Below, piece after piece: positions 4,621 to 53,180 of a stretch of 64,000 nt of DNA. This stretch comes from Pelagomonas calceolata (lineage: Eukaryota). The position numbers were made by a program, and so were the translations under genes. The notes beneath the pieces are model-generated. The model searched no databases and was not told the DNA's origin. It was given only the letters and a program-made list of their open reading frames with translations. Within the stretch, counting starts at the first letter, position 1, and each line of letters begins with the position of its first letter. The stretch is taken from positions 3,162,001 through 3,226,000 of the forward strand of contig CAKKNE010000006.1 of NCBI GenBank assembly GCA_918797485.1, in the 5' to 3' direction.

Positions 4621-7600
4621 TCAGAGGGCCGCTTCCTCGGGTGTGCTTGGTTCGAGGGCCAGAGAACCGTGCCGGAGCAAGATGGCGGACCACACGGGCA
4701 CGTGGAAGTGGTCGCCGGGTCGCGCGCCCTTGGGGACGACGCCCTCGACGCTGCGGCCGTCCGGGAGGTCCTTCCTCACGCGCGTGACGCCCGGGACCGC
4801 TTGTGGCGGGACCACGAGGTCCACCATGCCCGGCGGTGTTCTCTGAGGCGGCGGCGGCGGCGGCGCGGCCGCCGGGCGCGGCAGTGGCGGGGGCGGCGCG
4901 GTCTGCGCGCCGCCTGTCGGGATCTCGAGATCGTCTCCGGGCCGCGCGCCCGGGGGCACCGTGATCATGACCTCGCTCCCGTCCGGCAGCGGAATCGACA
5001 GCTCGTCGCCGGCCCTCGCACCCTCAGGCACGGTCACCGTCACCATGGATGCTGCGGCCGGCGGCGGCGTGGCCGCCGGGCGCGGCAGTGGCGGTGGCGG
5101 CGGCGTGGCCGCCGGGCGCGGCAGTGGCGGTGGCGGCGGCGTGGCCGCCGGGAGCGGCAGTGGCGGTGGCGACGTGTCCATGGGGCGGACGGAGATCACG
5201 TGGCCGACAGCCACATGCTCCGGCACGGGCTGCCCCGGCGGCACAACGCGATACGCCCCCACGCGCTCGGCTGAAGGGGCCTCCTCAGGTTCCGTGGTGG
5301 TGGGGGGCGTGGCCTCCGATGGCGGCGGCGGCGGCGGCGGCGGCGCGGCCGCCGGGCGCGGCAGTGGCGGGGGCGGCGCGGTCTGCGCGCCGCCTGTCGG
5401 GATCTCGAGATCGTCACCGGGCCGCGCGCCCGGGGGCACCGTGATCATGACCTCGCTCCCGTCCGGCAGCGGAATCGACAGCTCGTCGCCGGCCCTCGCA
5501 CCCTCAGGCACGGTCACCGTCACCATGGATGCTGCGGCCGGCGGCGGCGCGGCCGCCGGGGGCGGCAGTGGCGGGGGCGGCGCGGTCTGCGCGCCGCCTG
5601 TCGGGATCTCGAGATCGTCACCGGGCCGCGCGCCCGGGGGCACCGTGATCATGACCTCGCTCCCGTCCGGCAGCGGAATCGACAGCTGGTCGCCGGCCCT
5701 CGCACCCTCAGGCACGGTCACCGTCACCATGGATGCTGCGGCCGGCGGCGGCGCGGCCGCCGGGGGCGGCAGTGGCGCGGGCGCGGGCTCGGGCGCCGGC
5801 TCCGGCCCGGCGACTGGCGGTATCCCGGGCGGCGCGGCCTCCTCCGTCGGCGCGAACTCGTTGTCGTCGTCCGCGGCTGGTTCGCGCGGCTGGATGCCAG
5901 CAGAGAGGGCCAGAAAACCGTGCCGGAGCACGATGGCGGACCACACGGGCACGTGGAAGTGGTCGCCGGGCCGCGCGCCCTTGGGGACGACGCCCTCGAC
6001 GCTGCGGCCGTCCGGGAGGTCCTTCCTCACGCGCGTGACGCCCGGGACCGCTTGTGGCGGGACCACGAGGTCCACCATGCCCGGTGGCGGCGCGCCGGGG
6101 GCTGATCGAGGCGGCGGCAGCAGCCGGTAGTCGAGTTTTGGCACCGCCGGTATTGACGCCGGCACCGGCGCCGGCACCGGCACTGCAGGTGGTGGTGGTG
6201 TGGCCGACCGCGCGCCGGCGTCGTGGGCGGCCAGGCGACGCGCGAGCTCCTCGACGAGCACGGCCGACTTCTGGTTCGCCTTGATGCCGCGCAACTTCGC
6301 GAGGCGCTGCAGCTCGCGCCGCTCCTGGTGGTCGACCGCGGCTCTTATTGCTTCGACCGTGGCTTCATCCAGGTCTGACAGGTCGTCCACTGCTGCGCGC
6401 GCCATTGGCGGCTGCGGCGAGGCTACGAGATTGTCCGCCGCCTCATCGGCCGTCTCGGCAATCTCAGTGTGGTTCTCGGGTGTGCTTGGTCGTGCTTGTC
6501 CAGCGGAGAGGGCCAGAAAACCGTGCCCTAGCACGATGGCGGACCACACGGGCACGTGGAAGTGGTCGCCGGGCCGCGCGCCCTTGGGGACGACGCCCTC
6601 GACGCTGCGGCCGTCCGGGAGGTCCTTCCTCACGCGCGTGACGCCCGGGACCGCTTGTGGGGGAACCACGAGGTCGATCATGCCCGGTGGTACCCCTGGA
6701 GGCCGCGGCGGCGGCGCGGCGGCGGTTTTCGAGGGAGGCGGTGGCGGCAGCCCGGCCGCCGTCTTCGGTGGTGGCAGCGCGGCCGCCGTCTTCGACGGCG
6801 GCGGCGGCGGCGGCGGTGCGCCCGGGCGCGGCAGGTCGTCCACGAAGTGCGCCCCCGCCCGCGGCGAGGGCGTCGGCAGGGACGTGTCCCAGGGCACGTA
6901 CACGATCTGGCCCGGACCGGATCCGGCCGGCGCGCGGAAGTAGACCGGCGCGCCCGTGGGCGTCGAGCACTTCACCTGAGAGCCCGCGCACGCGCCCGCC
7001 GGCAACTTGACGAAGAAGGTGCGCTCGTGGCCGGCGAGCGCCGGCCCGGGCGAGCCGAGCAGCTCGTAGCCCGGCATCGTGGCGACCTGCCACGGCCGAG
7101 CGACGCTCGTCTTCTTCTTCCCGCCACCCGCGTTCGATGCCTGCAGCATGCCCGACACGGCCTTGGCCGAGAAGTAGCAGCAGAACAGCGTAAGGACTAG
7201 CGAGACCAACAACGCCAGCAGAGCCAGGGTTTGGAGCCCCCAGCCCCGCTCCCCGGCGAGGATCTCGTTGAAGCCCTCGGCGGACATGGCCGAGGCCGAC
7301 GAGTCCGCCTTGCAGGTGGCCGTCATGGCGTGGGGCGCCCACGACGCAGTCCAGAAGTCGTACAGCTCCCACGTGCCCGTCGACGCCGCGGGGGAGAGGT
7401 CGCCCCCGGCGTCCGCGAGCTGGTACCCGACCGCGGTGAAGGTGCAACTGTAAAGCTCGTCCCATAACCCGTCCTCGTAGCGACGGAGCTGCCACGCGCC
7501 TTCGGCAGAAGAGTAGAAGATGTAGTGGTGCAAGCCCCGCTCCCAGCCCGGCTGGTCGCTCATGCACCGGTCCGCGTCGTCCCGGCAGTCGGGGTCGTCC

Positions 7601-30440: not shown

Positions 30441-33400
30441 CTATATCGCGGCCAGGATCTCCTGTTTCTTCTGCTCGTACTCGGCCGGCGTGATGAACTC
30501 TTGAACCTCGTTGAGCTCCCTGAGGCGCTGCTGGGGGGACTTTGGATCCGAGGGAGCCGGGGGAGCCGGGGGAGCCGGATGCGCGCTCGAGCCAAACCAG
30601 CCCAGGTCCCAGGCCGACGCTGGCGTCGCGGGCGACACGGGCACGGCAGGCGACGTCGAGCCGAACCAGCTCCGGGCCACGTCCCAGGGCGTCGCTTGCG
30701 CGGGAGGGGGGCGGCACTCGACCTCGGCCTCGGGCCGATACCCCCGCCCGTGCTCGACCACGTATTTGAGCTCGTCGCGGAGCCGCCGGAGGTCCGGGTC
30801 GAACACCTCCGGAAAATCGAGCACGCGCAAGGCGCGGTCCAGCGGTTCTAGCCGCGACAACGGCGGCGGCGTCGCGGACGCGCCTGCGCCTTCGCACACC
30901 TCCTTGGCCATCCTTTCATACGCGAACAGCTTGTTCAGAATAGCCACCCCCAAGCCGACCGCGTACGGCTGCCCCTTAAGACGCTTAATGAACGGATGCG
31001 ACGCGCACATGGTCACCACGTGGGGCGGGGCAATTGGGGGCGGTTGCAGCCTGTTCGGGTTCGTGGCGCGGCGCTTGAGCTCGGGATCCCGCTGCAGGAG
31101 CAGGAAGGCGGTGTGGTCGTCCGTCATCCGGCCCAGCGGGATGATTTGCTCCGTGACACCATGCACCTGGCCGATGCCCGAGAACGACGAGCACGTCATA
31201 AGCACTTTTAGGTTCGAGCACGATTCCAGTAAACCCCGCAGTAACAGTCGACAGTGTTCTCTCGCTCGTTCTTTGTCGCCGGCCGTGACGACGAGTCGTT
31301 CAAAATCGTTCAGGACCACGAGCGTGGGCCCGGCGTGTGCCAAATGCGCCAGTGCGGAGGTGTCGAGCTCATGGGTGTCGAGGCGCGAATATGTCACGTG
31401 CTTGAAGATCCCCGCCGCTTCGTGCTGCTCCTGTTTGCGCTGTGCCTCCCTACTGTCCAGCGAGAAGTCGTCGTCGTCCGTGGAAGATCGCAGCCGCCTC
31501 GTGGACAGCGACGACGAGTACGTGCTCAGTCGCCGGTCGAGCGCCGCGCGCATGGGAGCCGCCTTCTGGATGACGTGCGCCGCAGCCTCGGCCACGTGGT
31601 GGAAGAAGCCGTCCCTTGTCGTGACTTTCACCCAGACGACGGCGTCGAAGTTCTGATGCTGTGAAACGTGAGCCGCCGCTTTTGCCGCCAGAGCGCTCTT
31701 ACCCGAGCCGTATCCACCACCAATCGTCGTGAGACGATGGTTGAGGATGGACTCGACGCAGAGCCATAACTCGGAATCCCGGCCCACGTAGAACGTCGGC
31801 GGCGGCGGCGCGTTCGAGGGCGGCGGCGGCCGCGTCGTTTCGTGGAACGACCCGGGGATCTCGGAGAAGATGGGCTCGTCGTGGGGTTGGTCCTCCGGGA
31901 GCAGTATGAAGCGCCCGTCGGAACCCTGCGTGTTTTGCGCCGCGGCGCAACCGATGTCGAAGGCTGTGCGTAACGAGTCCATATTAGCCAAAGATCGGTA
32001 GAACGCCCGGCAGAATTCTATGCCCGCGCGATCGGAAATTCTGCCATGGTTCTGGTTTTGCGCCACGGCAACCACGTGTTCCACGCCCGCGGCCACGAAC
32101 GCTCGCCCAACATCTTCGCTCTTGCACGAGTTTAACACCACCAATTTGCATGTCTCCGCGCCACAGGCCGACACCCGGTTTCTCAGCACCGTCGGGTCCA
32201 ATGTTTGCGCGCCGCCGTGGTCGTCTTCGAACATCATAAACTTTTCGTGGCCGTGGCCGGCAAAATGCACCACACGCGCCCCCAGCGTCACGGCCGACTG
32301 GAACGCGTCCACGGTGGCGGTGCGGATCTGGAGCTCAACGTCAATGTTCGCGTGAGCTGCGGCTTCGCGCAGCGCCTTCCGCAGCTTGTTGGCCTCGCCC
32401 TCGAGATTTAGTTTGGCGATCCCAGGGTTCAACGGCTCGCTCTGCAGCATGACGACGCGGTTCGCCAAAATCGCGCGGCTCGACTGCCGCTGCGGCGGCG
32501 AGCGGCTTGGCACAGGCGACGCAGGCCCGCCCGGTGGCGGCGAGGACGTCGCGCCGCCCGGCGGCGGCGAGGACGTCGCGCGCGGGACGTAGGCACCGTC
32601 GACGGCGCGGGCCGTCGACAGCGATAGCAGGACGCGTTGAAGGGCCTCCTGCTCGGTCGAGCTGTGGGCGACGAGATGCACCCGTTGGAGACCTGGATAC
32701 GCCATGTCGCCGATAGCCTTCACCGCGACTTTTAGCACGTTATCCAACGACTGTCTCCCGAGGCGGTTGCCCGCCGACAGCAGCGAAAATGCGACCGTCT
32801 TGCACTTGAGTCCATTGGCGCGCCGCATCGACGCTCGGTAGGCGTCCCTTAACAGATCGTCGCCCCTGGATAAATCATCGTCCATCTCCTTGTAGTTGGG
32901 ACCGACCGCGTGGATGATGGCTTCGCACCTCAGATAATTAAAGGGCCCGCCTGTGGTGACGACGGCGTCTCCCGTAAGACAGCGCGTGTCGCCGCTGATG
33001 ATGGGCAAGGCCTGGCGTTTCTCCGCTAATAACGCACCGCCGGCTCGTGAGATCGCCGCGTCCACGCCGGCGCCCTCGAGGCAGCTCTCTTTCACCGCGT
33101 TCACGAGCGCGTCCGTTTTTGCGTCCACCAGGCTTCCGGCCGAGGCCACTAACTCGCCGTATTTCAACGCGTGCCGCGCCAGGGGTACCAGGTTGTCGAC
33201 CAGTCCGCCGTGGTGATCCCAGTTATCGAAGTGGGCCTTGTGGTAGACTGGCTCCGTCCGTTGGATTCTTAGAGGTATTTCTTGGGGGGAGGGCGGGTCC
33301 GGCATCGTCTGGGCGCGCCGCACCGGGACGTACTCGCTGTTGAGGGCGAACTCCTCCGAGGCCGTTCGTCGCATATTGGAGGAGGCGTCCGAGAGGGGCG

Positions 33401-33494
33401 CCTCAGTTATTTCTGCTGCGCAGCGGTCCCGTACCTGGCGCGCCCGGATCGGCGCTCCAGGCTCCAGCGCCGGGCTCGCGCACCGGTCCGGCAT
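30441..33494 (-). CDS. Macro domain + CHAT (caspase-like) protease + STAND-like P-loop NTPase + SHOCT-like tail
   Basis: Macro: DALVNA, GAGVDAAISRAGG, GDAVVT, IIHAVGPNY, TVAFSLLSAG; CHAT: VVHFAGHG, LVVLNSC; NTPase: YVGRDSEL, GGYGSGKS, LVVLNDFE; tail ITPAEYEQKKQEIL. Confidence 0.88.
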   Translation of the reverse strand: MPDRCASPALEPGAPIRARQVRDRCAAEITEAPLSDASSNMRRTASEEFALNSEYVPVRRAQTMPDPPSPQEIPLRIQRTEPVYHKAHFDNWDHHGGLVDNLVPLARHALKYGELVASAGSLVDAKTDALVNAVKESCLEGAGVDAAISRAGGALLAEKRQALPIISGDTRCLTGDAVVTTGGPFNYLRCEAIIHAVGPNYKEMDDDLSRGDDLLRDAYRASMRRANGLKCKTVAFSLLSAGNRLGRQSLDNVLKVAVKAIGDMAYPGLQRVHLVAHSSTEQEALQRVLLSLSTARAVDGAYVPRATSSPPPGGATSSPPPGGPASPVPSRSPPQRQSSRAILANRVVMLQSEPLNPGIAKLNLEGEANKLRKALREAAAHANIDVELQIRTATVDAFQSAVTLGARVVHFAGHGHEKFMMFEDDHGGAQTLDPTVLRNRVSACGAETCKLVVLNSCKSEDVGRAFVAAGVEHVVAVAQNQNHGRISDRAGIEFCRAFYRSLANMDSLRTAFDIGCAAAQNTQGSDGRFILLPEDQPHDEPIFSEIPGSFHETTRPPPPSNAPPPPTFYVGRDSELWLCVESILNHRLTTIGGGYGSGKSALAAKAAAHVSQHQNFDAVVWVKVTTRDGFFHHVAEAAAHVIQKAAPMRAALDRRLSTYSSSLSTRRLRSSTDDDDFSLDSREAQRKQEQHEAAGIFKHVTYSRLDTHELDTSALAHLAHAGPTLVVLNDFERLVVTAGDKERAREHCRLLLRGLLESCSNLKVLMTCSSFSGIGQVHGVTEQIIPLGRMTDDHTAFLLLQRDPELKRRATNPNRLQPPPIAPPHVVTMCASHPFIKRLKGQPYAVGLGVAILNKLFAYERMAKEVCEGAGASATPPPLSRLEPLDRALRVLDFPEVFDPDLRRLRDELKYVVEHGRGYRPEAEVECRPPPAQATPWDVARSWFGSTSPAVPVSPATPASAWDLGWFGSSAHPAPPAPPAPSDPKSPQQRLRELNEVQEFITPAEYEQKKQEILAAI

Positions 33495-33951
33495 GGTCTG
33501 GGCTGGCTCCGTCTGTTTCCTGTTTTTGTGCTGTTTTGGTGCTGTTTTGGGTGCGGCTTGGACGGGGGCAGCCTCTGCCGCACTGGGCTTCTAAATCTTG
33601 AGCTTGCTTGCGCGCCCGTCCGGCTGGCTGGCACGGGGGGCAGCCCAGATGGCAGCCTGCCGCTGCTTCTGCCCCGCCGGGCCCGGGGATCTTGAGCTTC
33701 GGGCTAGTGTCTTACAGTCCCTAGTCCTAAGCATAGCAGCAGTCTTACAGGCCGCTAGCTTGAGGCCCCGAGACCCGGGAATCGCACGAGATATGGAACA
33801 GAGTAACACTCCCCCAAGGCTCGAGCCCTCCAGAGAACACTAGCGCAGAAAGCGACAAAGCCCGCGAGGCTGTATGACTCGGACAGTACCTAGTATCATG
33901 ATAAAAAATTTAAATGATAACGGCCAAATGCGAATAAAACGACGGCTGTTG

Positions 33952-36300
33952 TCACCGCCGCGCCTCGTATAAGAGCGCGACCGCGAGGACGTCAAGGACG
34001 AGGTGGACGACCGCGTCCAAGCGCACGTTCAGTACGAGGGCGTCCAGCGCCCCGCGCTCGGCCGCGTCGGCCGCCAGGCGCACGCCCCAGACCGCGGCGA
34101 GCGCTATCGCGAGCTGGCGCGGCTCGACGCTCGGCCCCAGGGCCCAGGGCGACGCGGGCGCGGAGGGCACCGCGGGCGTGGAGGGCGAGGCGACCGTGGA
34201 GGGCGACATGGGCGCGTCGAGCTGGAACTCGGGGGGCGGAGCCCAGGGCGACACGGTCGACGTGGGCGACGTGGGCGACGCGGGCGCGCCGTCGGGCCGA
34301 TACCTCCGCCCGTGCAGGACCACATGGTTGAGCTCCTCGCGGAGCCGCCGGAGGTCCGGGTCGAACAACTTCGGTTCGTCGAGCACGCGCAAGGCGCGGT
34401 CCAGCGGTTCGAGTTTCGACGCCGGCGGCAGCGTCTTGTGCGCGCCCGCGGCCTCGCATGCGGCCTTCGCCGCCTCTTCCGACGCAAACAGCTTGTTGAT
34501 TATAAGCACCGCCAGCGAGACCGCGAACGGCAGCCCATTGAGACGTTTCACGAACGGATGCGCCGCGTACGCGACGACCACGCTAGGAGGCGCAATTCGG
34601 GGCGATTGCCGCTTGAAGGGGTCCGTGGCGCGGCGCTTGAGCTCGGGGTTCCGCTGCAGGAGTAGGTACGCGGTGTCGGAAGGGGTCATCGGTCCGAGCG
34701 CGACGACCTGTTCCGTTACGCCCGGCACGAGGCCGATGCCCGAGCCCGACGAGCACGTCATCAGCACGCTGATGTTCGAGCAGCTTTCCAGTAAACCCCG
34801 CAGTAACAGTCGACAGCGTTCTCGCGCCGCTATCTGGGCCGCGGCGACACCCTGGCCCCCAAAGCCGTTCAGGACCAAATTTTCGAAATCGTTCAGGACC
34901 ACGAGCACCCTCCCGGCGCTCGCCAGGTCCACCAGGATGGAGGTGTCGAGCGCGGACGTGTCAGCCGTGTCAATAGAAGTACTCCTCTTCTTAATATGCA
35001 TCATTTTCTTGTTCATGGGATTCAGGTGGTCGTCCTCCGCCTTCTGGATGACGTACTTAGCCGCCTCGGCCACGTCGTCGAAGAAGCGGTCGGCGGTCGT
35101 GACGTTCACCCAGACCACCGCATCGAAGCGCCGGTGCTGCGACGCATAGTCCGCCGCTGCCATCGCCAGAGCGCTCTTACCCGAGCCGTATCCACCACCA
35201 ATCGTCGTGAGCCGATGCCGCAGCATGGACTCGACACACACACACTGGTCGGACGCCCGGCCGACGTAAAACGTCGGCGGCGCCGGCGCGTTCGAGGGCG
35301 GCGGCGGCCGCGTCGTCTCGCGGAACGACCCGGGGATCGGGGAGAAGATGGGCTCGTCGTGTGGTTTATCCTCCGGGAGCAGTATGAATTGTCCGTCGGA
35401 GCCCACCTCCCCGCGCATCTCCTTACGCGCGGCGGCGCAGCCAATATCAAAAGCTTTGCGCACCGAATCCATGTTCGCCAAAGATCGGTAGAACGCCTGG
35501 CAGAACGCGATGCCCGCGTGATCGGAAATCTTGCCATTATTCTGGTCCTGCGCCACGGCGACCACGTGTTCCACGCCCGCGGCCACGAGCGCGCGCCCAT
35601 TGGCTTCGCTGCTGCACGAGTTCAACACCACCAGTCGGCACGTGTGACGCCGGCCGGCGCCCGCCGACACCAGGCGCTGCAGCGCCTGCGGCTCCAGGGC
35701 CCGCGCGCCGCCGTGGCCGTCCTCGAACATCATGAATTTCTCGTGGCCGTGGCCCGCGATGTGCACGACGCGCGCCCCCAGCGTCATGGCCGATTGCAGC
35801 GCCTTCACGGTGGCGATGCCGACCTTGAGCTCGACGTCGACGTCGTTCGCGTAGGCGGCCTCGCGCAGCGCCTGTCGCAGCTTGTTGGCCTCGCCCTCGA
35901 GGTTCAGTTCGGCGAGCTTCGGGAGCTGGCGAATGTCGCCCCTTACCTTCAAATCGACGCCCAGCGGCTTGCTCAGCAGCACGTGGACGATGTTTGCCGG
36001 CGCCTTGGACGGCGGCGAAGGACTTTCGGATTCGTGACAAAGCATGGATGCCGTCTTAGTCCCGTGCTCGGGCCAGACCGTGTCGACGGCGCGGTCGTGG
36101 GCCGGCGAGCTCGGCCAGATCGAGTCGATCGCGAACTCCTCCGAGGCCGAGCGCCGCATATTTCTATTCGTGGAGGAGTCGTCCGAGAGGGGCACTGGCT
36201 CCGGCATCGTCTGGGCTCGCTGGACGAAGCGGTCCTTAAACGACGACGGATCGTGGTCCGCTTCGTTTTCCAGCGTCGGGGAGGCGCTCCGGTACGCCAT
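33952..36300 (-). CDS. CHAT protease + STAND-like NTPase, tandem paralog with hydrophobic C-terminus
   Basis: VVHIAGHG, LVVLNSC, YVGR, GGYGSGKS, LVVLNDFE; extensive identity to 30441-33494; no Macro domain; two hydrophobic C-terminal segments. Confidence 0.88.
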   Translation of the reverse strand: MAYRSASPTLENEADHDPSSFKDRFVQRAQTMPEPVPLSDDSSTNRNMRRSASEEFAIDSIWPSSPAHDRAVDTVWPEHGTKTASMLCHESESPSPPSKAPANIVHVLLSKPLGVDLKVRGDIRQLPKLAELNLEGEANKLRQALREAAYANDVDVELKVGIATVKALQSAMTLGARVVHIAGHGHEKFMMFEDGHGGARALEPQALQRLVSAGAGRRHTCRLVVLNSCSSEANGRALVAAGVEHVVAVAQDQNNGKISDHAGIAFCQAFYRSLANMDSVRKAFDIGCAAARKEMRGEVGSDGQFILLPEDKPHDEPIFSPIPGSFRETTRPPPPSNAPAPPTFYVGRASDQCVCVESMLRHRLTTIGGGYGSGKSALAMAAADYASQHRRFDAVVWVNVTTADRFFDDVAEAAKYVIQKAEDDHLNPMNKKMMHIKKRSTSIDTADTSALDTSILVDLASAGRVLVVLNDFENLVLNGFGGQGVAAAQIAARERCRLLLRGLLESCSNISVLMTCSSGSGIGLVPGVTEQVVALGPMTPSDTAYLLLQRNPELKRRATDPFKRQSPRIAPPSVVVAYAAHPFVKRLNGLPFAVSLAVLIINKLFASEEAAKAACEAAGAHKTLPPASKLEPLDRALRVLDEPKLFDPDLRRLREELNHVVLHGRRYRPDGAPASPTSPTSTVSPWAPPPEFQLDAPMSPSTVASPSTPAVPSAPASPWALGPSVEPRQLAIALAAVWGVRLAADAAERGALDALVLNVRLDAVVHLVLDVLAVALLYEARR

Positions 36301-36765: not shown

Positions 36766-37434
36766 ATGGCCGACGTCGAGCGCCCGGCGAAGCTGATGAA
36801 GCGCGGGGCCTTCGTGCGCTTCCCCGGCGACTACGTCTTCGCGCTCGCCGACCATCGATTGTTAGCGATTGAGGACGACCCCGGCGCGGGGCGGTCCATC
36901 GCGAGCGACCTGAAGCACGTCAGCGTCAAGGGCGACGTCTTGAACATCACGGGCTACGACGAAGAGGAATTCCTGCGGCGCGGGCTCCCGTCGATGGCCT
37001 GGGATACGCAAGAGCTCGAGAATATAGGGAAGTCCTTCGAGCATCTTTGTAGAACCGGGTCGACGGAGAATTTACCGTGCTACGAGGCCAAATTTAGGCG
37101 GAAGGACGGCCGGCCGTTTTGGTTGAGGTTTGACAGATTGTCGCAGACGCCGAAGACGGGACGGCACATGACCATCATGCACGACGTGACCACGGAAGTG
37201 GAATTACGGGAGGCGCGGCAGGCGAGGGAGGCGGCCGAGAAGGCCTGCGCCGACCTCAGTCGCGAGGTCCAGGCAAAATTGGTCCCGACCATCGGTATGC
37301 TGGAGCGGATCAAGGAAAAGGCGCCGCTACTCTCAGACGACGTGGACGCGATCTTGGAGGCGAACCGGACGGTGACGGGTTTCGCTCAAGAAATGCTGAA
37401 AAAAGGGTCCGCCGACGCGGCGCGCCCCCCCTGA
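36766..37434 (+). CDS. PAS/PAC sensor protein with degenerate HisKA-like coiled coil
   Basis: NITGYDEEEFL, YEAKFRRKDGRPFWL, HDVTTEVELRE; LSREVQAKL lacks the phospho-His; no HATPase domain. Confidence 0.75.
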   Translation: MADVERPAKLMKRGAFVRFPGDYVFALADHRLLAIEDDPGAGRSIASDLKHVSVKGDVLNITGYDEEEFLRRGLPSMAWDTQELENIGKSFEHLCRTGSTENLPCYEAKFRRKDGRPFWLRFDRLSQTPKTGRHMTIMHDVTTEVELREARQAREAAEKACADLSREVQAKLVPTIGMLERIKEKAPLLSDDVDAILEANRTVTGFAQEMLKKGSADAARPP

Positions 37435-37766
37435 CGCGCCGCCGGCGCTGCTCACGACCCTGCTGCTCACGCCCCTTGCCCCCCAGCTGCTCTCTTCCCA
37501 CGTCCCGTCTCGGCGCGATGTGGGGCCCCTAACATGGATTGTAGTACTGGCAGCCTTGAGCAGTCGACGGGCCAATTCGCAATTCGCAGTTGATGGCTGC
37601 GCGAGCGCCCGAACTAGTCCCATGGACCAAGGTGCACTGAAACCGAGCTAGCGTATATCGACACACTAGTAAATTTAAAGATACGCCTCGATAGCGTCAA
37701 AAGAATGACCCAAATTCAGAATACATCCTAGTCGTTCGCCGAGACCAAAGATTTCAGAGTAGCGGC

Positions 37767-37951
37767 CCGGGAACATACCCTCGCGCCTCCCGGAAGGCAC
37801 CGCCCGCGACATTCGCGGATGAGTCTTACGAGTTTCCAAAGTAGACCAGCGATTGACGCCGCCATCTACCGTCTGAATGGTACATTATATCAACTCCAGC
37901 CCAGTTTTCATACACACTCGACGGAACCGGAGCCGACGGCCCGCGCTCGGA
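37767..37951 (+). repeat. Dispersed repeat copy A (~185 bp), probable transposon relic
   Basis: Reverse-complement match to 52994-53180, e.g. cagttttcatacacactcgacggaaccggagccgacgg. Confidence 0.88.
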
Positions 37952-39323
37952 GGGCGGGAGAAGAATTCTACTAGACAACTCTCGCGTTTATGTTCGTTTT
38001 CTTCCGTTTGTTAGTGGTAGAGTCTATCTAGCCCGCATCAGCGCCCACTGAGCTATTTGAGATATTCCGTTGGAGCCGCGCGATTCGTCATCTTCGCGCC
38101 CCCAAGTTTTAGCGAAGATGGATTCAGAACCTGGACCTGCGAGTATCAGCGACGCCACCCTCCAGATGGACCATAACGCCGTTGTTCTATTCACGATCGA
38201 CCGACTTGCCCGTTCTCCGCGGACGACGGTGCATACGCGGGGCACTGGAAAGGCCCCAGACCGGTGAGTTATAAAATAAATTTGCGTTTCAGGCGCTTTG
38301 GTGATGGGACGGGCCAGCTAACCGGCTTGATTGTGTACTACATTGCTCCGAGACCCAAAGATGCTCGGCGCGGGTTGTCGGTCTCGCGAGCCCACGATCT
38401 GGCTAGATTTGGCTCCACACCTGGACCTACGACCATCAGCCCGTGTACCATCACCATGGACCATAATGCGATCATTTGTTTCATGACCGACCGACTTGCC
38501 CGAGGTCCAGATCAAGATGTTCACGTCCCGAGCATGGGCAGCCAAAAGTACCCTTCTCGTGGTGTAGATGTCATATACTTGTAGTTGACTATCGGTGGGG
38601 TAGTATGGGGCCCAACGAGGCCGCTATTACGATTCTTGGGGGCCCTCGGGTAATTGACGTTTTTTACGGGAACGGGGCGCCATCGGGTCCAAATTATTTA
38701 CTTTTTGTGGATGTAGATCGGCTCGCGGACTCCCTCTGGGATAGGTCTGGGGTCGGGTAGTCGCCTACGCCGCATGCGCCGGCGCTTGGAGCTCCCCAGA
38801 GAGCTCTGGATCGAGAAGTTGTCGGACTTGTGCTCAAGCCCGACAGCTGGCTGGGGACCTGTACTGATATGTATCTATTGACGGAAGCGCCCGCGCATGC
38901 GCTGTAGGCGATTGCACGTGTATAATACCGACCCTAGGCGGCCTCGGGGACACCTCAGGACCACGAATCGACAGGATTCCACCGACGCGGCCGCCATGGT
39001 GGGATCGTCAATATCGCGAATTAAAAAAAATATTTTTTTTGGCCCCCAGTACGTGTCCCATTGATCCTCTTGGACTATTAGCGAACGGAACGATACTCGA
39101 ACGGCTGCATGTTGTCCTTATAAAACCTAGTGTGTCTCGCCTAGCCTACTTCGGCGCAATGCTGAGCTTGGTCGCGTACAAGTTGCCAGTTTTTTGTCCA
39201 GCGCGACCCAAAGTTGCCGTCTAGCTTGCTGGCAGTGGACCCATAACGTCTACGGTGGTCAAATCCTCGTGCAATTCAAGTTACTCATACCCGCCATCGC
39301 TTTCAGGGCTGCCGCATGCGCCA

Positions 39324-52993: not shown

Positions 52994-53180
52994 TCCTAGC
53001 GCGGACCGTCGGCTCCGGTTCCGTCGAGTGTGTATGAAAACTGAGCTGGAGTTGATATAATGTCCCATTTGGACGGGAGATGGCGGCGTCAATCGCTGGT
53101 GTACTTTGGCAAGGTATAAGACTCATCAGCGAATGTCGCAGCGGGCGGTGTTCCGGGAGGCAATGAGGGTATCTTCCCGG
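52994..53180 (-). repeat. Dispersed repeat copy B
   Basis: Inverted copy of 37767-37951. Confidence 0.88.

Follow-up and report, generated by a model that had tools for sequence, protein, structure and literature searches.

The stretch of DNA analysed here, referred to as the window, comprises 64,000 nucleotides of GC-rich eukaryotic DNA from the pelagophyte Pelagomonas calceolata and harbours two adjacent paralogous genes, here named A and B, whose products combine a predicted caspase-like CHAT protease with a P-loop NTPase of the signal transduction ATPases with numerous domains (STAND) type and a helical domain. Both genes are intronless open reading frames arranged head-to-tail on the minus strand. 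Gene B (33952..36300; ATG at 36300, stop at 33952) encodes 782 amino acids in the order CHAT, STAND, helical domain and hydrophobic hairpin, and gene A (30441..33494; ATG at 33494, stop at 30441) encodes 1017 amino acids in the order Macro, CHAT, STAND, helical domain and SHOCT-like tail, with the cores of the two proteins being 59% identical over 670 columns. A preliminary description of the locus had reported two such neighbouring paralogs with a set of characteristic motifs, and both open reading frames as well as all quoted motifs in both proteins are confirmed. Stranded polyA reads (three runs, one sample) cover A and B on the expected strand with neither splice joints inside the genes nor a hidden spliced repeat exon extending them, and the read depth falls to about zero at 33656-34137 between the two genes. 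Because of this drop and the absence of internal splice joints, A and B are two separate transcripts; the spacer from the stop of B to the start of A (33495..33951), where the depth likewise approaches zero, contains the 5' untranslated region of A. Joints between A and B in one metatranscriptome occur at the level of contigs, may stem from other paralogs and were disregarded.

The CHAT domains of A (31869..32465, minus strand) and B (35347..35994, minus strand) score above the Pfam cut-off of 24 bits (E 1e-12 with 48.2 bits and E 2e-9 with 37.8 bits, respectively) and are equally recovered by profile alignment and, for B, by fold. The His motif (HFAGHG or HIAGHG) and the LNSC motif are present across A and B and the His/Cys dyad is intact in both, with His414 (32253-32255) and Cys457 (32124-32126) in A and His184 (35749-35751) and Cys229 (35614-35616) in B. 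A profile of the core matched a single entry of the PDB significantly, SAVED-CHAT (8tl0; E 2e-9), which is also the best fold match of the predicted CHAT structure. The His and Cys residues of A and B align with a His/Cys pair of SAVED-CHAT that is 47 residues apart, which equals the distance between its catalytic H375 and C422 (10.1101/2023.06.23.546230). A and B are predicted CHAT proteases with an intact dyad, and proteolytic activity is predicted for both.

The adjoining NTPase (31125..31817 in A; 34681..35298 in B, assigned by model and motifs; minus strand) contains in both proteins the motifs YVGR, GGYGSGKS, which is the Walker A motif (31695-31718 in A; 35173-35196 in B), and LVVLNDFE at the position of Walker B (31299-31322 in A; 34882-34905 in B). 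It is followed by a helical domain with a GxP motif, GQP in A (domain 30735..31124, motif 30966-30974, minus strand; no repeats thereafter, fold taken from the model of B) and GLP in B (domain 34297..34680, motif 34528-34536, minus strand). A model of the NTPase and helical domain of B, built from 73 sequences with a predicted local distance difference test score (pLDDT) of 90.6, displays an ASCE P-loop fold with the Walker A Lys and the hhGR motif, and matches PaBy2304 (Z 14.1) and Apaf-1 (Z 13.7, root mean square deviation 3.5, 229 aligned residues), followed by Sso1545, CED-4, ZAR1 and MalT, all listed matches lying within about one Z unit; Foldseek gave a similar picture. After GxP the model of B consists of helices only, yet the alignment to Apaf-1 extends to residue 445. 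G260 and P262 of the GxP motif are near-invariant among the 73 sequences, and GxP is described as the equivalent of the GLPL motif (PMC6713354). Assignment of the NTPase to the STAND class is supported by hhGR, GxP and homology to prokaryotic NACHT/NB-ARC-TPR proteins, the fold alone being no proof. As the GxP and hhGR motifs, the homology to prokaryotic CHAT-STAND-TPR proteins and the fold matches agree and the dyads of the CHAT domains and SAVED-CHAT can be aligned, the sequences support the earlier proposal of proteases resembling nucleotide-binding leucine-rich repeat receptors (NLRs) and STAND proteins. On the other hand, with respect to the effector-NOD-repeat architecture of NLRs, A and B lack the C-terminal sensor repeats: as already stated in the preliminary description, TPR, WD40 and LRR repeats are absent, with no Pfam match at E<=0.1, ANK repeats included, and no spliced extension.

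Two features are not mentioned in the preliminary description, a degenerate Macro active site, to which we return below, and the replacement of the first Asp of Walker B by Asn. A canonical Walker B (hhhhD) and the sensor-1 Arg are absent from A and B, and LVVLNDFE together with TCSS, which lacks the sensor-1 Arg, occurs in 15/15 Pelagomonas-like copies. The canonical Walker B is kept in four other pelagophyte proteins, and among 252 further matches the Walker B pattern was found in 55, all with Asp, with 154 sequences outside the pattern and 43 without a Walker A match. Because changes in Walker B are reported to inhibit the ATPase activity of NB-ARC proteins, we infer weak ATP hydrolysis by the NTPase of A and B. 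The motifs RAQTMP and RRxASE, which we take to be 14-3-3-like or kinase-site-like, are not conserved in Chrysophaeum, Aureoumbra and CCMP2097.

The two proteins differ at their ends. A Macro domain of the MacroD/YmdB type (32619..33167, minus strand) exceeds the Pfam cut-off in A only (E 8e-21), as previously described, and the N-terminal domain of A matches YmdB with E 2.5e-12; NCBIfam scores of the domain are all far under the cut-off. Its active site has departed from the family, NAAN being replaced by NAVK, His by Ser, the loop Tyr by Arg and the Asp of GDIT, which we assume to play a role there, by Ser, with the first Asn and the Asp of GVD retained. Thus, of the equivalents of the five MacroD catalytic residues N27, N30, D40, H44 and Y134 (PMC5413906), A retains two and has changed three. 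The Macro motifs are different in each of five copies, and dN/dS, the ratio of nonsynonymous (dN) to synonymous (dS) divergence, is 0.51 between paralogs, which indicates purifying selection. When 318 proteins were searched with a profile of four Pelagomonas-like Macro domains, no further member of the family was matched. A Nudix gene beside the Macro-type paralog on contig L002 was considered as support for ADP-ribose signalling and rejected, as it is MTH1-like and not an ADP-ribose pyrophosphatase.

At the C-terminus, A carries a short SHOCT-like tail (30444..30527, minus strand), which apparently replaces the ancestral hydrophobic tail. The SHOCT match proposed earlier is present, but weak (E 0.029, 14.6 bits versus a cut-off of 27); SHOCT is also listed for the paralogs P0013, P0016 and P0017. 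B ends in a conserved hydrophobic tail of two helices (33955..34137, minus strand), a predicted membrane anchor as judged by mean hydropathy. This tail aligns in Chrysophaeum, Aureoumbra, CCMP2097, a syntenic pelagophyte and three further sister proteins, with a Trp in helix 1 and a His-x3-Asp motif in helix 2 found in 8/8 aligned tails and a mean hydropathy above 1.4 of both helices in 7/8. The invariant Trp and His-x3-Asp could constitute a metal, haem or dimer site.

Because the tail of B is common to distant relatives and a lone B-type gene is found at the syntenic locus, B represents the ancestral type and A a later duplicate that gained the Macro domain and lost the hydrophobic tail. The proteins with the aligned tail listed above form a single clade (support 97-98), and contigs L005 and L006 of a related alga harbour a lone B-type gene at the same locus with neighbour genes 71-81% identical to those of the window. 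Equally, the Macro-type paralog of L002 has no B-type gene within 7.7 kb upstream, and a further Macro-bearing paralog of P. calceolata, P0015, is annotated on another contig. MYND-TPR open reading frames adjoining the L005 gene were discarded as a probable chance occurrence, similar frames being found in L002 and at 421-1248 of the window. With respect to gene structure, an A-type allele (L003:1232-1368) contains a 137-base GT..AG intron missing from gene A of the window, which presumably resembles pelagophyte introner elements, and P0019 reads through an insert similar to this intron. P0005 joins a partial STAND-helical unit in frame with a full Macro-CHAT-STAND unit, a fusion which suggests tandem read-through or recombination.

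Evolution of the locus is fast and mosaic. Contigs L004 and L007 correspond to this locus in a closely related lineage, with the 5' flank of B 94-98% identical, the tail 92-93% and the core 57-79%; L004 extends into the start of A (first 18/18 residues) and the tandem order, B followed by A, is kept. Between the haplotypes, core dN amounts to 0.16-0.32 versus 0.036 for the adjoining PAS gene, a 5-9 times difference that is significant in each of four regions (Fisher p<2e-6). The tail of B has a dN of 0.035 and a dS of 0.11, significantly below the dS of CHAT and NTPase (0.55-0.84), and the helical domain shows the highest dN/dS of the protein (1.2), above that of CHAT (p 0.016). Synonymous divergence of the PAS gene from L007 is 0.61 near B, falling to 0.20 farther off. 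In trees, the core of B from the window joins A-type paralogs and not the L004-type B, and a common core clade of four B-tailed proteins, a group chosen after the first tree, is rejected by the approximately unbiased (AU) test (p 2e-65). P0009 and P0016 are additional mosaics, and tails and inserts vary among copies (SHOCT, SAM-like and Tudor-like, the latter two labels being our assumption). A 59-amino acid insert in the helical domain, Tudor-like by the same presumed label, is seen in P0006, P0008, P0009 and L004, which form one haplotype class. Judged from these patterns, the data point to gene conversion and module swapping at the locus. Between species, on the other hand, the core is under purifying selection with a dN/dS of about 0.3. 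The CHAT domain has a dN/dS of 0.27-0.45. A widely conserved single-copy housekeeping gene, which the preliminary description had named as an outcome contrary to its proposal, is recognized in part: the core family is widespread in protists, but at this locus multi-copy and fast-evolving.

A search with a family profile against 1.84 billion representatives gave 411 matches at E<=1e-30, among which 147 new proteins were listed; a Pfam scan with strict thresholds covered 130 of these, the 17 omitted ones being mostly short. Partner domains in the scanned proteins are TPR (12), SPRY (6), SH2 (5), LRR (3), SAM (3), FHA (2), kinase (2), receiver (1) and EAD7 (1). Walker A occurs together with the His motif of CHAT in 117 proteins, of which 80, possible fragments included, lack TPR and extend by 480 residues or less past Walker A. 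TPR-bearing named members belong to Acidobacteriota, Chloroflexota, Methanothrix and Cloacimonetes, and the protist forms, with Gefionella, Platysulcus and Norrisiella as named members besides diatoms and Triparma, are mostly without TPR; the closest named relatives of A and B are from the pelagophytes P. calceolata and Chrysophaeum taylorii. Diatoms and Triparma possess a uniform protein of about 1450 amino acids with LRRs ahead of the CHAT-STAND module, the inverted order of an NLR, and in several of these proteins Arg replaces the Walker A Lys. In another eukaryote (GC 50%), a 1475-amino acid protein without repeats (L008:102-4526; CHAT His motif HCG) has Roc-COR preceding the CHAT-STAND module, and a C-terminal SH2 domain is found on the CHAT-STAND proteins P0075, P0080, P0088, P0098 and P0159. 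Among Atlas clusters, bacterial CHAT-AAA clusters (0.95, 0.94) were recovered, as well as an oomycete FHA cluster (0.88), which is considered as a lead only.

The tree keeps the pelagophytes apart from a second clade of protists, with prokaryotic proteins not placed firmly between the two and neither root nor donor fixed; two acquisitions of CHAT-STAND by protists are possible. Scans of viral contigs restricted to close matches gave 0/28 core relatives and 0/8 Macro relatives among pattern matches, and a viral fold library gave generic AAA+ and caspase-fold matches only. CHAT-NLR fusions are already known from bacteria and fungi, and brown algae are known to possess NB-ARC-TPR genes that evolve fast; no description of a repeat-less protist CHAT-STAND family was found in the open literature searched, in which subscription journals are sparsely represented.

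Taken together, the observations of the preliminary description are confirmed and its interpretation is partly supported. We consider it somewhat better than an even chance, with a probability of roughly 55%, that A and B are NLR-like proteases which are activated by self-assembly and serve defence or cell death, and the fast and mosaic evolution of the locus fits such a conflict role. The C-terminal hairpin would hold B at the membrane, and A, which has no hairpin, would be soluble. Input, in proteins that have no repeat domain, might be received via the helical domain or appended modules, with the Macro domain of A binding or mimicking an ADP-ribosylation target rather than hydrolysing it well, as a binding-only or decoy domain. 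Nucleotide binding would then lead to STAND assembly that brings the CHAT domains into contact, as in SAVED-CHAT filaments, and the activated protease would cut a substrate; with ATP hydrolysis being weak, the switch would reset only slowly. In this view, A and B are parallel variants with possible co-assembly and not an obligate pair.

Several findings weigh against these NLR-like proteases of conflict. Pfam matches of the NTPase to nSTAND1, NB-ARC, NACHT and AAA_16 are all below the cut-off (best E 1e-4), the fold does not separate STAND proteins from AAA+ initiators, since TnsC (Z 13.8) and ORC/Cdc6 (Z 13.6) score level with Apaf-1, and the model of B displays neither a winged-helix hairpin nor an MHD motif. 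In the tail of B itself, the hydropathy mean of 1.4 is passed by the second helix only, the read depth of A and B is low in the single sample analysed, and ten prokaryotic loci have no common neighbour gene as a substrate candidate, two Methanothrix relatives excepted. With respect to selection, the helical-domain dN/dS does not exceed 1 significantly (p 0.50) and the PAS dS of 0.38 is not significantly below the CHAT dS of 0.55 (p 0.14); as these synonymous divergences are of the same order, L004 and L007 may belong to a sister lineage and not be a balanced allele. Furthermore, relaxed selection after duplication could have caused the high dN and eroded the Walker B and Macro motifs.

In a competing explanation, the proteins would be general signalling or stress proteases relaying phosphorylation or GTPase signals outside immunity, and the Pelagomonas copies would be drifting duplicates. 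The partners in protists are general signalling modules (SPRY, SH2, LRR, SAM, FHA, kinase and receiver, as well as Roc-COR in L008), the LRR-CHAT-STAND protein of diatoms and Triparma is uniform, Chrysophaeum, Aureoumbra and CCMP2097 provide one representative each, and the core is conserved by purifying selection between species. Against it stand the core dN between same-locus haplotypes, exceeding severalfold that of the neighbour, and the core replacement and tail swapping found here, which are unusual in housekeeping signalling genes; equally, the characterised CHAT proteases in the cited papers function in defence or cell death. A purely signalling role is rather unlikely.

The preliminary description had proposed a paired sensor/executor system; in its strict form, the Macro domain of A would sense ADP-ribose and B, bound to a membrane, would be the executor. 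The giant-virus trigger that it gave as an example is not supported by the data, and gating by ADP-ribose stands as a hypothesis. The tandem order conserved in L004, the complementary architectures and the purifying selection on Macro between paralogs are in line with such an obligate pair, but the dyads are intact in both proteins, the genes are head-to-tail with separate transcripts, the B-type occurs alone in L005 and L006 and the Macro-type without an upstream B-type in L002, and the Macro motifs are unlike in each of the five copies, which makes this proposal decidedly unlikely. That A, and perhaps B, are decaying duplicates losing function is highly improbable, as the Walker B Asn with the missing sensor-1 Arg, the eroded Macro motifs and truncated or frameshifted relatives such as P0020 fit decay, but full open frames, transcription, the low CHAT dN/dS with intact dyads and the fixation of Asn in all copies instead of a scattered occurrence speak against it.

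Returning to NLR-like proteases activated by self-assembly, a wider scenario can be envisaged, which is possible though doubtful. On one or perhaps two occasions, protists would have acquired CHAT-STAND-TPR receptors from prokaryotes, lost the TPR array and made the core a multi-input caspase-like switch, which could be addressed through FHA, SH2, kinase and receiver domains by phosphorylation, through Roc-COR by GTP, through Macro by ADP-ribose and through the His-x3-Asp hairpin by membranes; the locus in the window, in an abundant picoalga, would then be an antiviral or non-self death locus that maintains recombining, deeply divergent haplotypes and has a fixed, hydrolysis-poor switch. Regulated death and death upon viral attack both occur in phytoplankton, with the receptors and proteases involved being poorly known. 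If true, the multi-input switch would represent the caspase-like machinery of regulated death that is missing from the picture of phytoplankton. In any case, a protease and a STAND switch in a single chain, present in diatoms, pelagophytes, a chlorarachniophyte and a malawimonad, provide a concrete, testable candidate. A and B are intronless, transcribed and small enough for expression, and offer a natural comparison of a putatively anchored, ancestral form with a derived Macro form as well as of STAND control without sensor repeats.

In the surroundings of A and B, the neighbour genes encode a Dus protein, the PAS protein, a PhzF-like protein, an ankyrin protein, a DJ-1-like protein and a GT8-like protein. 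The PAS gene (36766-37434) is short, includes a coiled coil, is strongly transcribed and divergent in orientation from B. A multicopy repeat at 37650-38400 and 52994-53180 displays very high contig depth in RNA-type runs and is partly retained at the syntenic position in L006; it has no match in Rfam, nor has the region 29000-55000 as a whole. L007 is 99.5% identical at 37650-37850, but this stretch, being part of the repeat, does not count as a clean flank. At 4654-6747 a long open reading frame contains several near-identical direct repeats of 180-315 bases.

Among known systems, the prokaryotic CHAT-STAND-TPR proteins (HXU31953.1 from Thermoanaerobaculia; Chloroflexota, Methanothrix, Cloacimonetes), here known from sequence, share with A and B homologous CHAT and NTPase domains that are identically ordered and spaced, as well as the dyad, hhGR, Walker A and GxP. 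A and B differ by the absence of the TPR array, the membrane-type tail or Macro/SHOCT, the Asn in Walker B and their eukaryotic context. CHAT is described as an N-terminal domain of bacterial NLRs (10.1101/2020.01.06.895854). SAVED-CHAT of type III-B CRISPR-Cas provides the closest solved CHAT domain with its His/Cys dyad and is reported to be activated by assembly into filaments (10.1101/2023.06.23.546230); this assembly proceeds through binding of cyclic triadenylate (cA3) to SAVED, whereas in A and B the neighbouring domain is a STAND NTPase, and neither a CRISPR context nor a substrate gene was seen near A and B. Models of the prokaryotic library PADLOC gave no match to A or B at E<=0.001. 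Fungal HET-Q2-like CHAT NLRs, reported to cut gasdermins (PMC8851545), are eukaryotic proteins as well, in which a protease directly adjoins a core of the NLR type; they are likened by architecture to A and B, which lack their repeat domain, and no gasdermin-like Pfam match was found among seven neighbouring open reading frames scanned. The MacroD/YmdB O-acetyl-ADP-ribose deacetylases match the Macro domain of A, in which substitutions affect three of the five active-site residues named above.

Apaf-1/CED-4 apoptosomes, plant resistosomes and bacterial Avs proteins combine an NTPase and a helical domain of the same fold class as A and B, which in turn have no CARD, CC, TIR, WD40 or LRR and contain the protease in the same chain. 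Paired sensor/executor NLRs are characterized by head-to-head linkage, one partner with an integrated domain and mutual dependence; only the integrated domain fits A and B, and orientation, separate transcripts and separate occurrence of the partners do not. In a stramenopile alga, finally, the NB-ARC-TPR and ROCO candidate receptors of Ectocarpus, for which fast birth and death with TPR/LRR exon shuffling is described (PMC3341825), are likewise fast-changing STAND-type genes, whereas A and B, without introns or repeats, vary by core replacement and tail swaps.

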